Source: a virus
Taxonomy: Duplodnaviria > Heunggongvirae > Uroviricota > Caudoviricetes
IMG/VR virus record: IMGVR_UViG_2778260996_000018
Direction: 5' to 3' (one strand)
Length of the DNA: 13,235 nt
The notes beneath the pieces were generated by a model. That model was not told the DNA's origin and did not search any database. It saw only the letters and a program-made list of their open reading frames with translations. The position numbers and the translations under genes are program-made. Positions 199 through 8,299 of this stretch are shown one piece after another (position 1 is the first letter of the stretch; every line of letters begins with the position of its first letter).

Positions 199-1917
199 AT
201 GATTTTTAGGGATAGCTTGAGAGTATTACCTTATGGTCGAGTAGATAATGATTTCTTCCAGATAGAAGAAAGACGTTCATGGAATGCAGGGCGATATTAT
301 TGGTCTAATAGAAGGATTTTTGGTTATATTGGAATTACTCAATCCAGTAATAAAGAGCTGAAAGATAAGTCGGGGAGAGAGGGATTCATAAGAAACCAGG
401 CTGCAAGAGAACTGAAAACTATTATATCTAATTTGTTAACTGAACTTGCTGATAGATTTTTTGGTTCACGTTCTGATGACCGTAAAGAGCTTTTAGAACA
501 AGTTAAGCGTGAAAAAGAGTTAAGAAAATCTGCTCAACAACAAGCTCGAAAATCAACACAAAAAAGTTTTTCAGAAGCTTTGAAGAATCAGACACCAGTT
601 CTTGATGCTTCCTTGGAGGCTGTTAAAAGGCTGAAAACTAAGCTTGATAAAACTGATGGTTCGTTAGATTTAAACTATCTTAAAATTATAGACAGTGATC
701 TTACAAACTTAGATGCGTTGCGCAGTGAAATTAAAACGCCTATCAAACCTCCAAAACTTGGAATGTATGAAGAGAAATATAGAGACTACAGAGATAAATT
801 TAATGAGTTCTCTGCGTATATTCTACAAATGAAGTTAGCAATTAATAAACTTGATTCTGAATTAAATAAACTTGAGCCTTCATTGTCAGCGAAAAATCAC
901 CTTGAAAAAAATCAAGGTATTATTAATTCTAAACTAACTAAGTTTAATAACACGATAGAGGAGAAGATACATTCTCTTTTAAAAAAATGGGCCGATGAAA
1001 TAAAGGTTGATCGAAGTGATTATTATGCTAAAACTATATCAGTTGTTGATTCAATAGATAATGATTCACAAATTGAAAATGTGTTTAATTTGCTCGATAG
1101 TTTATATGTTGAGTCAGTTGATACCCTAACTTTCAAATATCAATCAATAATAAAAGGTCTCGATAGATTATTTGAAGGTATAAACTTAGATTCAGCATTC
1201 TCATTATCTGAAGAAGAACGCTCATATTTTGAAGAAAAAGCTAAAAGTTTAAACGCGCTTGCACAGTTAGGTATTAGTGTTGAGATAATATCTCATGAAC
1301 TTGAAGAAATGGATTCTATGGTAACCAGAGGACTAAACTCTCTTCCTACTTCTGTAAAAGAACACCCTGGTTTTTCATTGGCGTTAAATGCTCACAGATC
1401 GCTTACTCAACAAATACGTTTCTTATCACCTTTGAAAATATCAGGTTATCAATCCAGGCAGAGAATAACTGGAAAAAATATCATGGATTATGTCCTGAAG
1501 TTCTTTGGGGAGCGTTTCGAACGGCAACGAATAACTATTGAATTTAGTGAAGAGTTTAAGCAAATCGCAATAACAGATATACCATCAAGGATCTATCCTG
1601 TTTTTACTAATATTATCAACAATGCAATGTATTGGGTCAGTCTGTCAAATAATAGGCTCATAAAGATTGGTTTTGTGAATTCTTTGGTTATCATAGCAAA
1701 TTCTGGTCCGGCAATTGATACCGATGATATCCCGCGACTATTTGAACTATTTTATAGCAAAAGAGCAAATGGACATGGGGTAGGTCTGTATCTATGTCGA
1801 GAAAACCTTGCTGTTGCACATCATAAAATATGGTATTCAGAACCTGATGAAGGCGATAACTATTTAATAAAAGATGACGCTAATTTTGTGATCCAGTTCA
1901 ATGGAGTGGAGTTCTAA
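199..1917 (+). CDS. Cytoplasmic sensor histidine-kinase-like protein (unknown N-terminal region, long coiled coil, C-terminal HisKA + HATPase_c)
   Basis: 572-aa ORF. Motifs read from the translation in canonical order: H-box-like ISHELEEMDS, N-box FTNIINNAMYW, G1 IANSGPAID, F-box-like FELFYS, G2 GHGVGLYL. Central ~250 aa is K/E/L-rich (coiled-coil-like); no hydrophobic TM segment. AGGA lies 4 nt upstream of ATG 199. The frame is open without a start codon from 73 to 198, so a 5' truncation cannot be excluded. Confidence 0.75.
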   Translation: MIFRDSLRVLPYGRVDNDFFQIEERRSWNAGRYYWSNRRIFGYIGITQSSNKELKDKSGREGFIRNQAARELKTIISNLLTELADRFFGSRSDDRKELLEQVKREKELRKSAQQQARKSTQKSFSEALKNQTPVLDASLEAVKRLKTKLDKTDGSLDLNYLKIIDSDLTNLDALRSEIKTPIKPPKLGMYEEKYRDYRDKFNEFSAYILQMKLAINKLDSELNKLEPSLSAKNHLEKNQGIINSKLTKFNNTIEEKIHSLLKKWADEIKVDRSDYYAKTISVVDSIDNDSQIENVFNLLDSLYVESVDTLTFKYQSIIKGLDRLFEGINLDSAFSLSEEERSYFEEKAKSLNALAQLGISVEIISHELEEMDSMVTRGLNSLPTSVKEHPGFSLALNAHRSLTQQIRFLSPLKISGYQSRQRITGKNIMDYVLKFFGERFERQRITIEFSEEFKQIAITDIPSRIYPVFTNIINNAMYWVSLSNNRLIKIGFVNSLVIIANSGPAIDTDDIPRLFELFYSKRANGHGVGLYLCRENLAVAHHKIWYSEPDEGDNYLIKDDANFVIQFNGVEF

Positions 1918-3667
1918 TATGACAGTGGCAAATTATAATTCTCTTGTCCAGAAAACTTTCTGCGAAAATGCAATTCGTTCCGTTGTCATGATTGATGACG
2001 ATTTTCTGACGTATTCTGAATCAATCAGGGCGTTGAATAACGAAGTTGATTTAGACTACAACAAAATTGACTCATCTAAACGAGCCGCTACTCTTGAGAG
2101 CTTTTTTCAATCTAAAAATATGATTTGTGATGTTGACAATGGTTCTGTTAATTTCGATGTGGATCGGATTAGAAAATCAGATCTTATTATTGTAGATTAT
2201 CATCTTGATAATAATGCACCTGATAAAACACTTAAACTATTACAAGATTTGAAAGACTCCGATCATTTAAATATGATTGTAATATATACTAGAGAGAATT
2301 TAGAAACGGTTTGGATGCAGATATCATCGACTCTCAAAGGTGCTCTGGATATCAACAGCTTGATCATTGACTACGATAATGAAGATGTCCAAAGTTATTG
2401 GGAAGACGTTGTATTACCGAACTTAAATGATAATGGTAATAAAGCTCTCACAAGAGATGAAACAATAGCCTATATTAAAGACAGTAAGCCTTGTAGAAGA
2501 ATTAAAAGATTAATACATGATGATGCTGTGTTGGAGGAACAAAAGGATAAAAACTTCATTGCAAAAATGATTGCAGAATATGCTGTGTCTAGAAATGCAA
2601 TTATTTCTAGCAACACATCTGGCAATGTCATTCGGGGTGATGAAAGCGGAGTAAAATGGATTCAATGTGGTAATATCTTTGTCTCCCTATTTCATAAGGT
2701 TCAAGATGATCATGAAAACGATGGAGATAGGATTTGGCAAACTCTCAATGATTCTCTCATTGAATGGAAACCATCTTATTATCAGTTAATAAAATCTGAA
2801 ATTCAGAATGCAATCGAAGCTGAGGCTTTATCTTTTGTAAATCATTTGGCTAACGATCATTACGGTCAAGCTGCGTGGTTAAATGAGATATTAAAATCAG
2901 ACTCGCCTGATATTAGATGTAGAAATATTGACTTTGTATTTGGTAATTTATCAGAAGAGCTTTATCAAAGACTTAAAAATAATAATACGCTGGATGAATT
3001 TATCAAAAGTGTTTTTGATAGCTATTCAAATGAATACGCTAACAGCGGAGTTGCTGCATTGCTCCAATATTGCTCTTCAAAAATGGATCTGCCATCAAAT
3101 AATGATACTTATCACGAAATGTATCATGCTTTAAATATGAATTTGTCTTCAAAGAATTTTGAAGATGGTCATATTTCTACTGGCACTATTTTCTTTGATA
3201 CAGAGTCGAACAAATGGTATTTATGTGTATCTGCGGCATGTGATTTGGTTCCTACTCAGGGTAACGACCCTCACCATGTAAGATTAAGTCCGCACAGGCT
3301 CATTAAAGTTCTGGAGCTTTTTAACGCCAGTCAGAGTAAAGCATTGCCATTTGCTGAACATTCGAAATATATATATGTAATGCATAAAAATCAAAGAAAA
3401 TATCTCTCTATTTTCGAAGGGGATAAAACGCTTCCTGTTGTTGATTATATGGTGGTGTTGAATCATGGAACAACAGTTGATGGCGAAGAAAAAAATATTA
3501 TTTCTGCCGTGTTTTTAAGTAATATGGATGGCAACGTGCAAAATGTTCCTGTCCGACTCAAACTTAAATCTCAACTGAGAACTGGTTATGCAGAAAGATA
3601 TCAGGCTATAGCGTCTCAGTATAGCTCAAGGATTGGTGTGGATTATGTATCAATGATGCTACCATAA
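1901..3667 (+). CDS. Receiver (REC) domain protein fused to a ~430-aa uncharacterised C-terminal output domain
   Basis: 588-aa ORF. N-terminal receiver signature in order: VVMIDDD (acidic pocket), DLIIVDYHLDNN (phospho-acceptor Asp), NMIVIYTRE (conserved Thr). No HTH or other motif recognisable in the C-terminal part. Overlaps the kinase gene by 17 nt; the alternative start ATG 1919 sits just after the kinase stop and is preceded by GGAGTGGAG, so it may be the true start. Confidence 0.7.
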   Translation: MEWSSNMTVANYNSLVQKTFCENAIRSVVMIDDDFLTYSESIRALNNEVDLDYNKIDSSKRAATLESFFQSKNMICDVDNGSVNFDVDRIRKSDLIIVDYHLDNNAPDKTLKLLQDLKDSDHLNMIVIYTRENLETVWMQISSTLKGALDINSLIIDYDNEDVQSYWEDVVLPNLNDNGNKALTRDETIAYIKDSKPCRRIKRLIHDDAVLEEQKDKNFIAKMIAEYAVSRNAIISSNTSGNVIRGDESGVKWIQCGNIFVSLFHKVQDDHENDGDRIWQTLNDSLIEWKPSYYQLIKSEIQNAIEAEALSFVNHLANDHYGQAAWLNEILKSDSPDIRCRNIDFVFGNLSEELYQRLKNNNTLDEFIKSVFDSYSNEYANSGVAALLQYCSSKMDLPSNNDTYHEMYHALNMNLSSKNFEDGHISTGTIFFDTESNKWYLCVSAACDLVPTQGNDPHHVRLSPHRLIKVLELFNASQSKALPFAEHSKYIYVMHKNQRKYLSIFEGDKTLPVVDYMVVLNHGTTVDGEEKNIISAVFLSNMDGNVQNVPVRLKLKSQLRTGYAERYQAIASQYSSRIGVDYVSMMLP

Positions 3668-3680
3668 TTATTATATTTTA

Positions 3681-3720
3681 GGCGTGGTGATTTTTTTTCG
3701 CCATGCCTATTTTATATTTA
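3681..3720 (+). terminator. Possible weak intrinsic terminator after the receiver-domain gene
   Basis: ggcgtgg (3681-3687) can pair with ccatgcc (3701-3707) including one G-U pair, followed by a T-rich run tattttatattta. The loop is long and U-rich, so this is atypical. Confidence 0.3.
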
Positions 3721-3738
3721 TCATCACAATGATGTTGT

Positions 3739-4155
3739 TTATTTTTGTTTAAGTCTTCTAAGCTTCATGCATTCTAATGAGAATAATAATAGAGTTGTGC
3801 TGTATATAAAGCCAGAGTTAGTTAATAACTTTAAATTTAATGCTTCAGGATTTTCACTGAGAAAGTGAAAGGCATAAACTAAGTATACAGCTAAAGTAGC
3901 CGTTCCAATTGTTGGTCCAATATCGCCTTGATCATGAGGTTCAAGGTTTACATTGAACTTGAAGATTAGCCATTCAAATCCCCAAGTAAAAAAAACAACT
4001 AATATCATGGCTGCGAATAATTTCGCGATGTTATCTGCTGATGGATTCATCAGAACAGATTGTTTCTGAAAAAATTCACAAAGTGAGAGTCCGAAAAAAA
4101 TAAAAAAAAGTGGTCTGGAACTAAATTTTTCAAAAACTTTGAATAGGGTTTCCAT
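3739..4155 (-). CDS. Small polytopic membrane protein (about 4 predicted TM helices), function unknown
   Basis: 138-aa ORF with four hydrophobic stretches (PLFFIFFGLSLCEFF, LFAAMILVVFFTWGFEWLIF, GPTIGTATLAVYLVYAFHFL, GFIYSTTLLLFSL). Starts 38 bp downstream of the integrase stop on the same strand, with a GAAGG-like sequence upstream of the ATG. Confidence 0.5.
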   Translation of the reverse strand: METLFKVFEKFSSRPLFFIFFGLSLCEFFQKQSVLMNPSADNIAKLFAAMILVVFFTWGFEWLIFKFNVNLEPHDQGDIGPTIGTATLAVYLVYAFHFLSENPEALNLKLLTNSGFIYSTTLLLFSLECMKLRRLKQK

Positions 4156-4193: not shown

Positions 4194-5465
4194 TTAGGCT
4201 ACCAGAGCATTTGATCTTTGAGCTTGAACGTAATCACTCCACCATTGCATCAAACTCTGTCGCTCTATCAGATATTCTGCACGATTGTATGCTGCGATAA
4301 TTTCATCTTTTTTCGAGTGGGCAAGCGCTGCCTCAAGAACTTCAGCTCTGAATTTACCAGACTCCTCTGCCGCTGTTCGTGCAATAGAACGCATACCGTG
4401 AGCTACAAGCTCGCCTCCGAACCCCATTCGGATGATAGCTGCGTTGGCTGTTTGTTCATGCATATGATTAAGAGGCGCTTTTATGCTGGGGAAAACCCAT
4501 TCTCTATGCCCACTTATTGATTTCATTAATTCAAGGATGCGCAAAGCTTCTTTACTCAAAGGAACTTTGTGAAGCTTTTTCATTTTCATGAAATCAGCAG
4601 GAATGTTCCAAATGCTGTTGGTTGTATCAATATCAGACCACCTTGCGCGAACGGCTTCACCCGGACGAACCCATGTCAACAATTGCCATTCAATTAGCAT
4701 ACGTGTTTCCAACCGGATTGACGCATTCGTCAAAGATTCCATAAACCTTGGCAATTCGCTTGGGGGAAGGGCAGGCATATTTTGCTTTTTTGGTTTACTG
4801 AATCTTTGACCAAGGTTGTCAGCCGGGTTGAACTCAATAAGTTCTTCAGTAGCTGCCCACCGGAAGATTTCATTCAGACGTGAAATGATACGGCGTAGAG
4901 TTTCCAATACGCCTCGTTGCTCAATAGGATCAAGGTGTTGTTTTAAGAGCTTAGGTCGGATCTCATTGATAGGGACATTACCCAGACCGGGAAAGACATT
5001 TCTCTCTAAGCTGCGCCAGATGTCTGCTGCATGGTCTTGTGAGATACCTGATGTCTTTACCTTCTCATCTAACCATTTCCGCGCTACGGCTTGGAGAGTG
5101 TGCTCAGTAGCACTCTTTAATGCCTTCGCCTTATCGTTGTTATGGATTTGGGGATCAACACCATTTGCCAGAAAGGAGAGATATTCATCACGTAAGGCTC
5201 TGGCTCTTGCAAGGGTAAGGTGAGGATATGTCCCAAGGCTCATTTTGGTTCTTTTCTTGCTCACTGGTACTGCATACCTGAAATACCAATTTTTCTTGCC
5301 TCCTTTCGCCAAAGGAGCGATTCGTAGAATCAGACCATCACCGTCAAACAAGTTGATTTCTTTATCGGCTGGCTTGGTGCTTTTGATTTCAGTGTCAGTG
5401 AGCTTCTTAGCGATTTTTGCCATTTTGGGACCCTCGGTTTTTGGACCCTTCTTAGTGGGTCCCAT
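4194..5465 (-). CDS. int: P4-type tyrosine site-specific integrase
   Basis: 423-aa ORF. N-terminal arm-binding-type motif (LTDTEIKS..KP..KEINLFDGDGLILRI..GKKNWYFRY) typical of P4-family integrases; C-terminal catalytic region with VAHGMRSIARTAAE (H-x-x-R) and the terminal tyrosine region IIAAYNRAEYLIERQ. The more likely start is the internal ATG at 5423 (MAKIAKKLTDTEIK), which has a GAGGG Shine-Dalgarno; the first ATG at 5465 has none. The start points at the ssrA remnant, as with intA next to ssrA in E. coli K-12. Confidence 0.9.
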   Translation of the reverse strand: MGPTKKGPKTEGPKMAKIAKKLTDTEIKSTKPADKEINLFDGDGLILRIAPLAKGGKKNWYFRYAVPVSKKRTKMSLGTYPHLTLARARALRDEYLSFLANGVDPQIHNNDKAKALKSATEHTLQAVARKWLDEKVKTSGISQDHAADIWRSLERNVFPGLGNVPINEIRPKLLKQHLDPIEQRGVLETLRRIISRLNEIFRWAATEELIEFNPADNLGQRFSKPKKQNMPALPPSELPRFMESLTNASIRLETRMLIEWQLLTWVRPGEAVRARWSDIDTTNSIWNIPADFMKMKKLHKVPLSKEALRILELMKSISGHREWVFPSIKAPLNHMHEQTANAAIIRMGFGGELVAHGMRSIARTAAEESGKFRAEVLEAALAHSKKDEIIAAYNRAEYLIERQSLMQWWSDYVQAQRSNALVA

Positions 5466-5588
5466 TCAGGGTGCCATAACTCGTAGTTCTCAGCAATTCT
5501 CACTGGACGACAATAGACGTAAAAAAGCCCGCAGAGCTTGTGCTGTGTGGGCTTAGTAGACTTCATTGAACTTCAAACAACTAAAAAG

Positions 5589-5624
5589 TGGTGGAGCTGG
5601 CGGGAGTTGAACCCGTATCCGAAA
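5589..5624 (-). other. Remnant of the 3' end of ssrA (tmRNA): attachment-site repeat, not an intact gene
   Basis: tggtggagctggcgggagttgaacccgtatccgaaa matches the reverse complement of the E. coli tmRNA 3' terminus (T-arm, acceptor 3' strand, CCA) with 2 mismatches, from memory. Sequence beyond 5625 has no resemblance to the rest of ssrA (no tag-peptide region). Confidence 0.8.
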
Positions 5625-5881
5625 AATTCTTAACCAATTGAATATTAATGATTTTTCTAATTTAAAATACCTCACGTGCATTTTACGTGCATATTGTAGT
5701 ACCTCTAACGTCCTGATTCTGTCCAACATTTTGAAGTGTTTAGGCGCCACTGGGGCGGTGATTAGCGCTGTTTTGTGCTGTTCATAGCACTTCAAGACTA
5801 TTCAATTCAGAGCAATCGTTGAAGAATTACCCGTAAGGTAATATCATACTATTTAGGTAACTGCGGTTATCACCATCAAGG

Positions 5882-5918
5882 GCCACTGATGACGCTGTTA
5901 TCATCAGTGGCTTTTTGT
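5882..5918 (+). terminator. Intrinsic (rho-independent) terminator-like hairpin with no obvious upstream plus-strand gene
   Basis: Perfect 11-bp stem gccactgatga / tcatcagtggc with 8-nt loop cgctgtta, followed by ctttttgt. The reverse complement is not followed by a T-tract, so it is plus-strand specific. Confidence 0.6.
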
Positions 5919-5958
5919 ACCTTCACTGCACAGCCAGTGAAGTGTTGAGGAGACTAGC

Positions 5959-6300
5959 ATGAGAACAGTAGCGAGAAGATCGATACAGACGATTGAGCGT
6001 CGGACTCAACTCGTCAGTTCTTTTGTTGACTCAAACACAGCAAACGAGTTCTTCGTGAGAAGACTGAGTGATCGTGTCTCCCCGGCACGTCAGCTGTTTA
6101 TTGTGACATTGAACAATGAGGTTCGTGACGGTGACGTGATCCCGTTCGCTGAGATCGCCATGAACAAAGAAAAATTGCGCTATGTTGTGAAGCCAGCAGA
6201 TCAGTATCCTCAGTATGTAAGCAGTAATCTGCTGAAGAAAATTGAAGCGGCAATTGCTCTATACATGCAGAAGAACTACAGGGAAATTAACTACCATTAA
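5959..6300 (+). CDS. Hypothetical protein, first gene of a two-gene moron operon
   Basis: 113-aa ORF with GAGGAG Shine-Dalgarno 7-13 nt upstream of the ATG; followed 11 nt later by the next ORF. No family recognised. Confidence 0.55.
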   Translation: MRTVARRSIQTIERRTQLVSSFVDSNTANEFFVRRLSDRVSPARQLFIVTLNNEVRDGDVIPFAEIAMNKEKLRYVVKPADQYPQYVSSNLLKKIEAAIALYMQKNYREINYH

Positions 6301-6311
6301 AAGGTTGCTGA

Positions 6312-7079
6312 ATGGCTCCTGCGTTAATACCTTCATATAACAAGGACTTGAACATTACGCCATTTGGCGAAAAACGTCTTATTGAGTCATTCTATTTTTT
6401 CACTGCCGAGGCTGGCTTACTGAGGGCTGATGAGTACATTGTCAGTTCTGGTGAGTTTCAGTACTACTTGGATGTGTATCAACTGGGATGTTCCACCGAC
6501 GACTTTTTTTTAGACTATGGCAGTGACCTTCTTGATTCGAAGGTTCCAATGCAGGATCTGGTCAATACCCTCTTGGGTCTTGATATGGTAGACGATAACA
6601 AAACGATAAGAATAGGTCGTATACAGTTCAACGACTTTAATTTTATCGAAGAGAACGGTCAGATGATGACCGGAAAGCAAGTGAAAAGCGCTGTTATCGC
6701 ACAGGATTTCCAATCAGCAGGTTTGGCGCGTGAGATCTATAAAATGCTTGCGCGAAAGCATGAGTTTCTCATCTGCGATAACATTCAAAGTATTGCCGGT
6801 GGTGCTCTTTGGGCTAGTAGCATCATTCGAATTGCCGAGGTACGGATCTACAATTCACGCACGAAGAAATTTATGGACATACTTGGTCCAGGTGCGCGTG
6901 GCGTTTCAGGTACTTTGCCATGGAGTGCGAATGATCTGTCTGTAGATGAGATTGTTCGCTGGGGTCGTGCGTATGATGATGAAAACTGTTGTCGTCACAT
7001 TGTACATGTTATCTGTAAGGACCGACTCATTGACGATCAATTTCATGATTATGTTTCGATAGGTGGCGCGACAGAATAA
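6312..7079 (+). CDS. Hypothetical protein, second gene of the two-gene moron operon
   Basis: 255-aa ORF, soluble-looking, immediately followed by a strong terminator. No family recognised. Confidence 0.6.
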   Translation: MAPALIPSYNKDLNITPFGEKRLIESFYFFTAEAGLLRADEYIVSSGEFQYYLDVYQLGCSTDDFFLDYGSDLLDSKVPMQDLVNTLLGLDMVDDNKTIRIGRIQFNDFNFIEENGQMMTGKQVKSAVIAQDFQSAGLAREIYKMLARKHEFLICDNIQSIAGGALWASSIIRIAEVRIYNSRTKKFMDILGPGARGVSGTLPWSANDLSVDEIVRWGRAYDDENCCRHIVHVICKDRLIDDQFHDYVSIGGATE

Positions 7080-7084
7080 CCATC

Positions 7085-7115
7085 AAAAAGACCCGGCATT
7101 TGCCGGGTTTTTTCT
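7085..7115. terminator. Bidirectional intrinsic terminator between convergent genes
   Basis: aaaaag-a cccggc attt gccggg tttttt: GC stem with 4-nt loop, flanked by an A-tract upstream and a T-tract downstream. Sits between the stop of the 255-aa gene (7079) and the integrase stop (7121). Confidence 0.75.
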
Positions 7116-7120
7116 TCAAA

Positions 7121-8299
7121 TCACTTCTTCATTCCAGATTCCATTGCGGTTTTCCCGTCGTATTCAGCCAGGTATTTACCGTAATTGCGGAACAGCATTT
7201 CCGGCCCCTTATGCCCCATCTGCCCGGCAAGCCAGAAAAGGTTTACACCCTGGCTAATGTGTCTGGTGGCGAATGTGTGGCGCGTCTGGTACGGGTTACG
7301 GTAGCGCACACCAGCTTTTTTCAGGGTCGGCACCCATGCTTTTTTACGGATAGCGTCGGCGTTCGTCCAGGGATCTCCCGTTTTCGGATCGCTGAATATG
7401 AACTCACTTTTCATAAAGGTGTATTGCTTCTGCGCCTGCAGGGCCGCCAGCGCCTCACTGTTCAGCTCCACCTTACGGGTACCGGCTTTTGTCTTGGTGC
7501 CTTTAAGTACCCCTACGACACTGGCCGCCTGTATGTGCGCTGTATTACCTATAAAGTCGATATCGGTCCAACGTAATGCGCATAGCTCAGAGCTGCGTAG
7601 CCCTGTATTGAAGGCGAAGCGGAACAGATTCTGCCATTCCTGATACTTGCAGTGCTGATATATGGCACTGGTTTCCGCAGGCGCAAACGGATCAACTTCG
7701 TAATCGTCGGCGTTCGGTTTACTGTCGACCACGTGATACCGGCTGGCGCTGACAAGAGTTACCGGGTTAATAGTCAACAGGCCATCAGTTACAGCCTCAT
7801 CAATGGCGCTGCGCAGAAATGACAGGTTATTCCTGATTGTTTTCAGCTTAGTTTTTCGGCTGGCTATCCAATTTTTTAGTACCGCAGGCGTCAATTCTGT
7901 TACATGTAGTTTATGTAGTTCTGATAGTGCTGATAGACATTTTTCGTAACCGCCAATGGTTGACGGCGACAGATTGCGGTTCATGCAAATTTTCAGGTAT
8001 TCATCAAGATAGGACTTAATATTTTTGGTTTTCTTTACTACACCGAATAACTCCAGTTTTTTGGAACTGGGGAAATATTTCGCATATTCAAACGTTCCGC
8101 TGGCGATCTGATTTTGTATCTCCCCTAGCAGGCGCTCAGCATATTTAATACCACGTGTATTTGCCTCAAGCCGAGACAGGGGCTCCCTGCAAAGAACCCC
8201 TTTATATGTGAAAGTGATAACTAGTGTTGAAGCAGTTTTATGCTTACGAATAGTTACTCCTCTTGGCAGAGATAATAATCCTTGTTCTTTCTTGCCCAT
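7121..8299 (-). CDS. int: Lambda-type (phage) tyrosine integrase
   Basis: 392-aa ORF. Catalytic signature near the C-terminus: PYQTRHTFATRHISQGVNLFWLAGQMGHKGPEMLFRNYGKYL (R, H-x-x-R, H, Y). AGAGG Shine-Dalgarno upstream. Its 3' end faces the att remnant, as in lambda where int is transcribed toward attP. Confidence 0.9.
   Translation of the reverse strand: MGKKEQGLLSLPRGVTIRKHKTASTLVITFTYKGVLCREPLSRLEANTRGIKYAERLLGEIQNQIASGTFEYAKYFPSSKKLELFGVVKKTKNIKSYLDEYLKICMNRNLSPSTIGGYEKCLSALSELHKLHVTELTPAVLKNWIASRKTKLKTIRNNLSFLRSAIDEAVTDGLLTINPVTLVSASRYHVVDSKPNADDYEVDPFAPAETSAIYQHCKYQEWQNLFRFAFNTGLRSSELCALRWTDIDFIGNTAHIQAASVVGVLKGTKTKAGTRKVELNSEALAALQAQKQYTFMKSEFIFSDPKTGDPWTNADAIRKKAWVPTLKKAGVRYRNPYQTRHTFATRHISQGVNLFWLAGQMGHKGPEMLFRNYGKYLAEYDGKTAMESGMKK

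Follow-up and report, generated by a model that had tools for sequence, protein, structure and literature searches.

In the attP site of phage lambda, the P' arm is laid out as a core, a site for integration host factor (IHF), termed H', and the tandem arm-type Int sites P'1, P'2 and P'3. Classical phage morons carry their own promoter, a gene and a terminator. Early termination is known from prophage RNAs such as StxS, which is reported to be a stable small RNA (sRNA) that arises from termination at tR' just downstream of the constitutive promoter PR' and to be processed to a stable species of 74 nt (PMC7547250). In IsrK of Gifsy-1, one promoter gives rise both to a read-through mRNA and to a short, terminated isoform, which acts on the former (PMC4825925). 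These are the closest described systems for positions 5625-5958 of a 13,235-nt stretch of phage DNA (IMG/VR record IMGVR_UViG_2778260996_000018, Caudoviricetes; the whole stretch is hereafter the window), which precedes a two-gene cassette and which a sequence-only reading had taken for one integrated regulatory element with a tandem repeat, an inverted repeat and two hairpins. Comparison with related phages and prophages points instead to the junction of two unrelated units, namely the arm of an attL site (5589-5735) and an autonomous moron with an early-terminator leader (5819-7113), a reading to which we give a probability of roughly 0.62. The attP arm, a piece of filler and the cassette leader are separate parts of this region.

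Two probable units meet at a left attachment junction

The region 5589-5958 is the attL, or left junction, of a lambdoid prophage that is inserted at the 3' end of the Escherichia coli ssrA gene. Between 5560 and 6300 it is 99.9% identical to the chromosome of E. coli O103:H2 PV16-126. Among 5426 complete E. coli genomes just 10 contain this interval in full, and the PhiR12 phages have it as well. The 27 nt that match the end of ssrA equal the genuine ssrA end in L003 (PV16-126) and divergence begins at 5616, so that 5589-5615 is the att core and all DNA to its right belongs to the phage. In phiES15, 26 nt of the same core are annotated as attP. Infernal aligned the transfer-messenger RNA (tmRNA) model only by its last part (5589-5626, minus strand), and a full tmRNA or tRNA gene in the window was rejected, as ARAGORN found none and only the last 27 nt of ssrA are present.

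The two sides of the junction have very different distributions. Homologues of the P' arm occur in 1364 E. coli genomes, where they match only about 5589-5735, and also in the phages LMessi, phi467 and phiES15; matches to 5736-5962 were limited to 10 genomes and the PhiR12 phages, with identities of at least 98%. Homology to LMessi ends at about 5735, exactly where the stop codon of the LMessi int gene comes next, which indicates that the segment 5736-7120 was inserted where the P' arm would otherwise adjoin int.

Within this insertion, 5736-5815 appears to be lineage-specific filler at the insertion junction, and this includes the inverted repeat. The repeat is present as had been described, except that its second arm lies at 5788-5795 instead of 5789-5796, and it is one among 11 inverted repeats of at least 8 nt in 400 nt. 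The fold of 5725-5800 that it closes scores z -3.6 to -4.6 against shuffles in the lineage of the window, is degraded in L014, a 98%-identical relative with two A.C mismatches (z -2.0), and is absent in L015-L018 (z +0.1 to +1.3), even though the att arm and the cassette are both kept there. This decay and absence ruled out the repeat and its fold as a conserved element, and with it the regulatory role that had been assigned to the pair. The mutually exclusive GTGAAG/CTTCAC pairings that had also been proposed are unsupported: they involve this repeat, whose position is before the predicted start of transcription and not within the conserved unit. Two direct copies of a 13-nt sequence (TGAAGTGTTTAGG / TGAAGTGTTGAGG) are found at 5732-5744, where homology to LMessi ends, and at 5938-5950, just before the Shine-Dalgarno sequence of the first cassette gene. 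This direct repeat is not conserved in L015-L018 and may be a recombination scar or a product of chance.

Putative integrase arm sites

The tandem direct repeat that the sequence-only reading had placed at 5674-5692 is exactly there (ACGTGCATTTTACGTGCAT), and the window holds no copies of ACGTGCAT other than these two. By chance, GTGCAT-N5-GTGCAT would be expected 0.04 times in the window. The pair lies 58 nt from the core, and the other prophage end carries CACGTGCAT-TTT-ACGTGCAT in the same orientation, about 95 nt from the CCA end of ssrA, so that after excision each of the two arms next to the core would carry the tandem. In the phage LMessi, whose intact attP lies in the middle of its genome, one arm has ACGTGCAT-TTC-ACGTGCAT and the opposite arm AAGTGCAT-TTT-AAGTGCAT; together they make up a direct repeat of 29 nt whose copies are 196 nt apart, with the core between them.

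In an alignment of the P' arms of eight phages and prophages (A7), the invariant groups of columns are the core, a TTAA...TTGAA block and GTGCA(T/C)...GTGCAT, and the intervening sequence drifts. The CACGTG palindrome varies (CAAGTG or CGCGTG in relatives) and is incidental. Among the window phage, LMessi and phiES15, integrase identity is 89-90%, and the integrase encoded at 7121-8299 (minus strand) has an N-terminal arm-binding domain (PF12167 Arm-DNA-bind_2, E 4e-21) in addition to PF00589. The most plausible reading of the tandem ACGTGCAT-TTT-ACGTGCAT is two arm-type sites for the integrase, and the tandem is predicted to be a protein-binding site in DNA, to the exclusion of an RNA element. 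Its earlier assignment to an RNA regulatory element is not borne out, for the repeat belongs to attP arm DNA, lies upstream of the predicted transcription start and recurs on the other att arm.

The arrangement resembles the lambda P' arm in the order of core, candidate IHF-like site and tandem short repeats, in the recurrence of the repeats on the other arm, in the location of the arm on the int side and in the presence of a tyrosine recombinase with an N-terminal arm-binding domain. It departs from lambda in the motif of the putative sites, RNGTGCAT, of which there are two copies as opposed to three in lambda, in a core that lies inside the 3' end of ssrA, and in the cargo genes that stand between the arm and int.

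Beside the GTGCAT pair, both att arms also display GT(A/C)CC or GTCY motifs in an 11-nt phase. In the window (5699-5724) these are GTACC at 5699 and GTCC at 5710 and 5721, and on the other arm there are three copies of GTCT (L003 ~13330-13370, reverse). They may constitute further protein-binding sites, for Int or Xis.

A conserved leader with a predicted early terminator

Upstream of the cassette, the second unit opens with a predicted sigma-70-type promoter whose spacer holds the inverted repeat TTACC-N5-GGTAA (5827-5841), followed by a 5' stem-loop and a strong intrinsic terminator. The terminator hairpin has a minimum free energy of -22 kcal/mol (z -5.3), and the predicted RNA 5855-5918 reaches -28 kcal/mol (z -4.8). 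The sequence-only reading had described this hairpin as an orphan terminator with no plus-strand gene upstream; its coordinates, its strength and the lack of such a gene stand, and the orphan status does not, since a promoter-like site of its own lies about 35 nt upstream. Between 5917 and the Shine-Dalgarno sequence at 5947 there is no room for another promoter.

The arrangement recurs in homologues of the cassette. Over about 140 nt before the ATG, they keep the order of a TTG -35 element, a 17-nt spacer, a TAnnnT -10 element, a small hairpin at the start and a strong hairpin with 5-7 T, and a Shine-Dalgarno sequence and ATG follow about 40 nt after the T-run. This architecture is kept in at least six unrelated phage contexts, with L026 and L031/L032 as exceptions, and nothing upstream of the -35 element is conserved among the cassettes. 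The combination TTG...17 nt...TAnnnT is retained in most of the 15 leaders tabulated. Spacing is tight: from the -10 element to the end of the T-run there are 66-70 nt in 10 of 14 leaders, which gives a predicted RNA of 60-64 nt, and from the T-run to the ATG there are 39-45 nt in 14 of 14. A hairpin abuts a run of 5-7 T in all 17 leaders analysed. The base of the terminator stem, CCAC/GUGG, is almost invariant, and its upper part is swapped wholesale (GAUGA/UCAUC, GGAGA/UCUUU, GACU/GGUC or GGCU/AGCC). At the place of the 5' stem-loop, distant cassettes have other stems, namely ATTACCA/TGGTAAT and GATTC/GAATC.

Ten alignable leaders were scored against a two-helix structure (alignment A8). In total, 97.6% of the cells pair, including every cell of helix 1 (the 5' stem-loop) with its G.U and A-U variants, and four pairs are changed on both sides, a score that only 3 of 500 column shuffles attained. 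When the partner is displaced by 1-3 columns, pairing falls to 22-71%. Single-sided changes yield 16 G.U or U.G cells and 2 A.C cells, and the helices are 97.6% paired when read as plus-strand RNA as compared with 89.4% as minus-strand RNA. These data favour a plus-strand RNA structure over a DNA palindrome or a minus-strand element, and are supportive, not conclusive. Fold stability does not discriminate in this way: the region 5625-5965 folds better than shuffles on both strands (z -4.0 plus, -3.7 minus), and folding alone is thus no indication of RNA.

Rfam 15 at gathering thresholds gave no match in the window, and at E<=10 the interval 5450-6100 returned only tmRNA, IsrM and tRNA-like flanks that end at or before 5680, so that no family of covariance models matches the leader 5819-5958. 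We regard the leader as an RNA element that is conserved and has not been described before, and whose mechanism would be of a known type. Several other roles were considered and rejected. Coding potential of 5625-5958 was dismissed, as relatives carry a 13-nt indel inside the available frames; that the region lacks an open reading frame, as had been claimed, is right insofar as RefSeq annotates none, and only mechanical TTG-start frames exist (5638-5787 plus and 5553-5795 minus). An extended -10 element embedded in the terminator (TGTTATCAT, 5896-5904) is not conserved in distant leaders and was not retained as the true gene promoter. Leader-peptide attenuation by a 19-codon frame (5889-5948) was likewise discarded, for the frame has no counterpart in L025, L027, L035 and L037 and the peptide is unconserved.

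Downstream of the terminator, the second hairpin, CTTCACTG / CAGTGAAG, lies at the coordinates first proposed for it (5921-5942) and ends 4 nt before GAGGAG. In L015-L018 and L072 a double change from C-G to U-A preserves its stem, and a hairpin is found in the same place in some distant cassettes. Against shuffles its stability is z -1.0 in the window and -2.5 to +0.8 in distant cassettes, and the predicted fold leaves the Shine-Dalgarno sequence unsequestered. It is probably part of the 5' untranslated region, which is a weakly supported assignment. The idea of an sRNA or attenuator leader in this region therefore survives in part: conserved architecture, spacing and plus-strand covariation uphold it for the terminator and, less firmly, for the second hairpin, with a short RNA that would end near 5916-5918 as the expected product, and it falls away for the tandem and inverted repeats. 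Conservation in relatives is divided along the same lines, with the terminator kept across cassettes, the second hairpin weakly so beyond the close clade, and the inverted repeat not at all.

The leader shares a number of features with described systems. As in the lambdoid PR'-tR'/StxS unit, a promoter is followed almost immediately by an intrinsic terminator, a short RNA would be expected in the lysogen, and the downstream genes would need read-through or antitermination. Unlike that unit, the one in the window lies between attL and int with no adjoining Q gene (only some homologues, L029-L032, follow Q), it moves, together with its two genes, into contexts that are not lambdoid, and no Q-binding or pause element was identified in it. 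Its predicted RNA of about 62 nt differs from the 74-nt StxS and has no sequence or Rfam similarity to StxS. IsrK is comparable in being prophage-encoded and in having a promoter-proximal terminator that yields short and long isoforms upstream of accessory genes; the window RNA differs from it in sequence and in its downstream genes, and lacks above-chance complementarity to the downstream mRNA. Type III toxin-antitoxin systems (toxI repeats, terminator, toxN) are likewise mobile or phage-related and combine a promoter, a non-coding RNA, an intrinsic terminator and protein genes. In the window leader, however, tandem RNA repeats are missing (Tandem Repeats Finder reported none there, the only repetition being a 13-nt imperfect two-copy repeat at 5863 and 5894), the proteins are GNAT-like by model and not endoribonucleases of the ToxN type, and PADLOC gave no match. 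Classical morons provide a further parallel, with their own promoter, a downstream terminator (here 7085-7113), variable insertion sites and an orientation co-directional with late genes; what sets this cassette apart is the extra strong terminator between promoter and genes, which is conserved across the cassette family.

A mobile two-gene cassette and a possibly shared promoter

The two genes behind the leader, the first of which begins at 5959 in RefSeq (WP_001261060.1), appear to form with it an autonomous transcription unit, a moron (5819-7113) inserted between the P' arm and int. Searches of Pfam, PADLOC and NCBIfam placed their products in no family at a useful score, and the only hits were to PHROGs of unknown function. 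AlphaFold models of moderate confidence (predicted local distance difference test, 74 and 77) are GNAT-like, which we treat as a lead and not as an assignment. The model of the first protein, a GNAT-like alpha/beta fold, makes a role as N-like arginine-rich antiterminator or as repressor unlikely, and this candidate was set aside.

Searches of IMG/VR, GTDB genomes, metagenomes and a protein collection returned diverged homologues of the 113-aa protein (60-89% identity), and on the homologue contigs examined the gene is always followed by one of 238-256 aa. Their contexts are diverse. In Yersinia the cassette lies between tail genes and an arc-like repressor, in Pantoea within the tail/baseplate cluster of myovirus-like prophages, and elsewhere between a tail-fibre gene and integrase, beside an integrase of another family, or directly downstream of Q antiterminator genes (L029-L032), with lysis genes (lysozyme or holin) further downstream in L029 and L031. 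It is always co-directional with the neighbouring late genes. On L026 (1-3404), a contig not typed as plasmid, it adjoins psiA, psiB and a parB-like gene, an arrangement known from plasmid leading regions; the upstream region there is unlike the leader, and the contig begins only 65 nt before the gene. In L031/L032 (2299-2500), about 200 nt after a lambda-type Q gene, the -35 region is kept together with a different spacer and a poly-G Shine-Dalgarno sequence, and the promoter may double as the PR' of that phage.

The cassette promoter, TTGAAG-NN-TTACC-N5-GGTAATA-nACT, often with a perfect palindrome in its spacer (ATTACCTTTAAGGTAAT), was also observed in 32 IMG/VR contigs. In at least 10 distinct contigs it heads unrelated cargo cassettes of two to three genes that have no terminator leader (loci with the shared promoter: L050, L052, L053, L057, L058, L060-L062, L064, L065, L069-L071 and L073). 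Its occurrence before other cargo supports a real promoter and indicates that the terminator leader is specific to the present cassette. This pattern suggests a 'moron promoter' shared by different cassettes, with an operator-like palindrome that resembles the ACCT-N3-AGGT site of MqsA. BLAST searches with the palindromic promoter gave no match in E. coli genomes and, among phages, only two Klebsiella phages with genes annotated as hypothetical; the palindrome sequences were not found in the literature searched.

Proposed mechanism and competing explanations

On the attachment side of the junction, the N-terminal domain of the integrase would bind the two ACGTGCAT copies and thereby build the recombination complex. 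On the cassette side, the sigma-70 promoter would start transcription at about 5855, and the nascent RNA would form the 5' stem-loop and then meet the strong intrinsic terminator about 35 nt from the start. Given that no promoter fits behind the terminator and that the terminator at 7085-7113 closes the other end, transcripts would have to pass this obstacle, and most would end as an RNA of about 62 nt (~5855-5917). Only read-through, or an antiterminated polymerase during lytic growth, would reach the Shine-Dalgarno sequence and the two GNAT-like genes. The leader would hence work as a promoter-proximal attenuator that keeps expression of the cassette low in the lysogen, and since the cassette is co-directional with late genes, antiterminated late transcription could override the terminator in lytic growth. 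What the comparison shows directly is the sequence features, how they are conserved and spaced, and their covariation on the plus strand. Promoter activity, transcript ends, termination efficiency and the logic of low expression in lysogens and high expression in the lytic cycle are what we infer, and all functional statements rest on sequence comparison.

A number of observations weigh against this combination of attL arm and attenuated moron. On the attachment side, the far-end arm was taken from the 99.9%-identical genome and not from the window itself, and IHF-like matches of the same quality as the candidate site number 31 in the window against 22.6 expected, which is no enrichment. On the leader side, the promoter, start site and termination are predictions; L031/L032 have no canonical terminator, and L045/L046 have a weak terminator and a longer leader. 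The second hairpin is weakly supported outside the close clade, and the covariation sample is small (10 sequences), made up of related sequences and dominated by pairs that vary little. An antiterminator hairpin pairing CAUCA with UGAUG, in which the linker would pair with the 5' arm of the terminator, is a weak alternative; it occurs in some lineages only (the window, L040 and L033), and its absence from L027, L037, L042 and L043 led to its rejection as a conserved element. With no conserved antiterminator, any regulated read-through would take place without a visible mechanism. A strong terminator inside the late operons of non-lambdoid phages (L027, L045) is also hard to reconcile with simple constitutive termination.

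The most serious competitor holds that the RNA of about 62 nt (5855-5917) is itself the functional product, be it an StxS-like Hfq-dependent sRNA, an IsrK-like activator or an RNA partner or antitoxin of the GNAT-like proteins, and that the terminator serves to make this RNA and not merely to attenuate. The tight 60-64 nt between promoter and terminator fits such a role, a 5' stem-loop followed by a terminator with a U-tail is typical sRNA anatomy, and there are precedents in IsrK (PMC4825925) and in StxS (PMC7547250). Set against this, the single-stranded linker 5872-5881 is unconserved in sequence, which argues against a conserved trans target; duplex energies between the short RNA and the downstream mRNA (80 nt) are no better than those of shuffles in 12 homologues (z -0.4 to +1.6); and tandem repeats like those of type III antitoxins are as absent as any Rfam match. 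A functional sRNA is possible, its conserved anatomy being the one thing that speaks for it, and we consider this explanation unlikely overall. We speculate further, with distinctly less confidence, that the short RNA, the terminator and the two GNAT-like proteins could form a three-part mobile module in which the RNA acts as regulator or antidote and the palindrome of the shared 'moron promoter' is a repressor operator that also controls other cargo cassettes; its logic would be like that of type III toxin-antitoxin systems or IsrK, with different parts.

In another account the terminator would be an insulator against outside transcription, coming from the host or the neighbouring island in the lysogen or from late genes across attP, with the upstream 'promoter' inactive or irrelevant. 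The closeness of the terminator to one end of the prophage favours this, as do the terminators on either side of classical morons, and the circular phage has plus-strand late genes (J, lom, tail fibre, nleL and espN) upstream across attP. Yet the genes immediately upstream across attP (espK and the dinI-like one) are on the opposite strand, the -35/17/-10 geometry is kept at a fixed distance from the terminator in every context, including deep inside phage operons, and between 5917 and 5947 another promoter would not fit; we consider insulation an improbable account. Hardly tenable is the model of the sequence-only reading, in which the whole of 5625-5958 is one riboregulator with alternative GTGAAG/CTTCAC pairings. 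Its attractions are the unusual fold stability (z -4.0 for 5625-5965, z -3.6 for 5725-5800) and the direct repeat TGAAGTGTT(T/G)AGG at 5732 and 5938, but the minus strand is nearly as stable (z -3.7), 5625-5735 is common to cassette-free phages in which it abuts int directly, 5736-5815 is unconserved even where both flanks are kept, and distant cassettes share nothing upstream of the -35 element. This model is already contradicted by the comparative data.

Features of the locus and its surroundings

The coordinates are collected in Table 1. The bacterial ssrA terminator on the host side sits just downstream of the ssrA end and matches the 3' terminator end of Rfam IsrM. The IsrM model itself matches 5521-5598 on the minus strand by both of its ends only (E 9.6e-14, 53 bits against a gathering score of 376), which suggests that the Salmonella IsrM locus shares ssrA-adjacent sequence.

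Table 1. Coordinates of annotated and predicted features in the window
Feature	Position	Strand	Basis or remark
CP4-57-like island integrase	4194-5465	minus	PV16-126 annotation, in window orientation
Bacterial ssrA terminator, host side of the junction, not phage DNA	5525-5539	minus	Terminator scan
att core / crossover region of attL, 27 nt identical to the ssrA (tmRNA) 3' end	5589-5615	minus	cmscan, tmRNA 3' end
P' arm of phage attP, integrase side	5616-5735		Homology at 80-95%
Candidate IHF-like site ATTCAATTGGTTA, 12/13 positions of WATCAANNNNTTR, between core and arm sites	5631-5643	minus	Match in conserved A7 columns
Two putative arm-type integrase sites, ACGTGCAT x2, 11 nt start to start, conserved core GTGCAT	5674-5692	plus	Putative
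Inverted repeat TTGAAGTG / CACTTCAA, closing the lineage-specific fold	5731-5795	plus	No conserved function inferred
Sigma-70-type promoter: -35 TTGAAG 5819-5824, 17-nt spacer, -10 TATCAT 5842-5847	5819-5847	plus	Predicted
5' stem-loop GGTAAC-TGCG-GTTATC at the predicted transcript start	5856-5871	plus	Folding and A8 helix 1
Intrinsic terminator: 11-bp perfect stem 5882-5892 / 5901-5911, 8-nt loop, U-tract TTTTT 5912-5916	5882-5916	plus	Terminator scan, folding
Second hairpin, arms 5921-5928 / 5935-5942	5921-5942	plus	Ends 4 nt before the Shine-Dalgarno sequence
Shine-Dalgarno GAGGAG 5947-5952 and ATG 5959, cassette gene 1	5947-5961	plus	Sequence; RefSeq CDS start
Two-gene cassette: 113 aa (5959-6300) and 255 aa (6312-7079)	5959-7079	plus	Both modelled as GNAT-like
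Two hypothetical genes	5959-6300 and 6312-7079	plus	PV16-126 annotation
Bidirectional intrinsic terminator AAAAA-ACCCGGC-ATTT-GCCGGGT-TTTTT	7085-7113		Closes the cassette (plus) and int (minus)
'Arm DNA-binding domain' integrase	7121-8299	minus	PV16-126 annotation; lambdoid early genes come next

In PV16-126, the complete ssrA gene adjoins the far prophage end, about 53 kb on. The gene order there is J, lom, tail-fibre genes, nleL and espN, and then come, on the opposite strand, espK and a pseudogene that is dinI-like. Three of the genes at this end, espK, espN and nleL, encode type III effectors (L003 14456-22535), which marks the phage as a carrier of virulence cargo. Next to the P arm, the dinI-like pseudogene is preceded by a pair of LexA-box-like sequences, CTGTGTTTGTATACAG and CTGTATGGATAAACAG (L003 ~13490-13545, reverse; PV16-126), an arrangement that LMessi shares. 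On the host side, the neighbouring ssrA island (199-4155) encodes a 572-aa 'ATP-binding protein' that overlaps a 588-aa 'response regulator receiver domain' protein, and a 138-aa hypothetical protein on the other strand. PADLOC gave no meaningful match for the island genes at 199-4155, which may be defence-type cargo.

Implications

Altogether, the finding is real but composite and for the most part ordinary, and it does not overturn current understanding. A recombination site is now separated from a gene-control element, two things that the sequence-only reading had merged. For the widespread family of ssrA-integrating enterobacterial phages, this provides a testable arm-site motif, two copies of RNGTGCAT on both arms. 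The cassette side offers an undescribed RNA leader, absent from Rfam, which accompanies an uncharacterised pair of genes across many phage backgrounds and could yield another prophage sRNA of the StxS kind. If the leader indeed keeps the cassette genes near-silent in lysogens and open in antiterminated lytic transcription, it would represent a compact example of how cargo genes are insulated.

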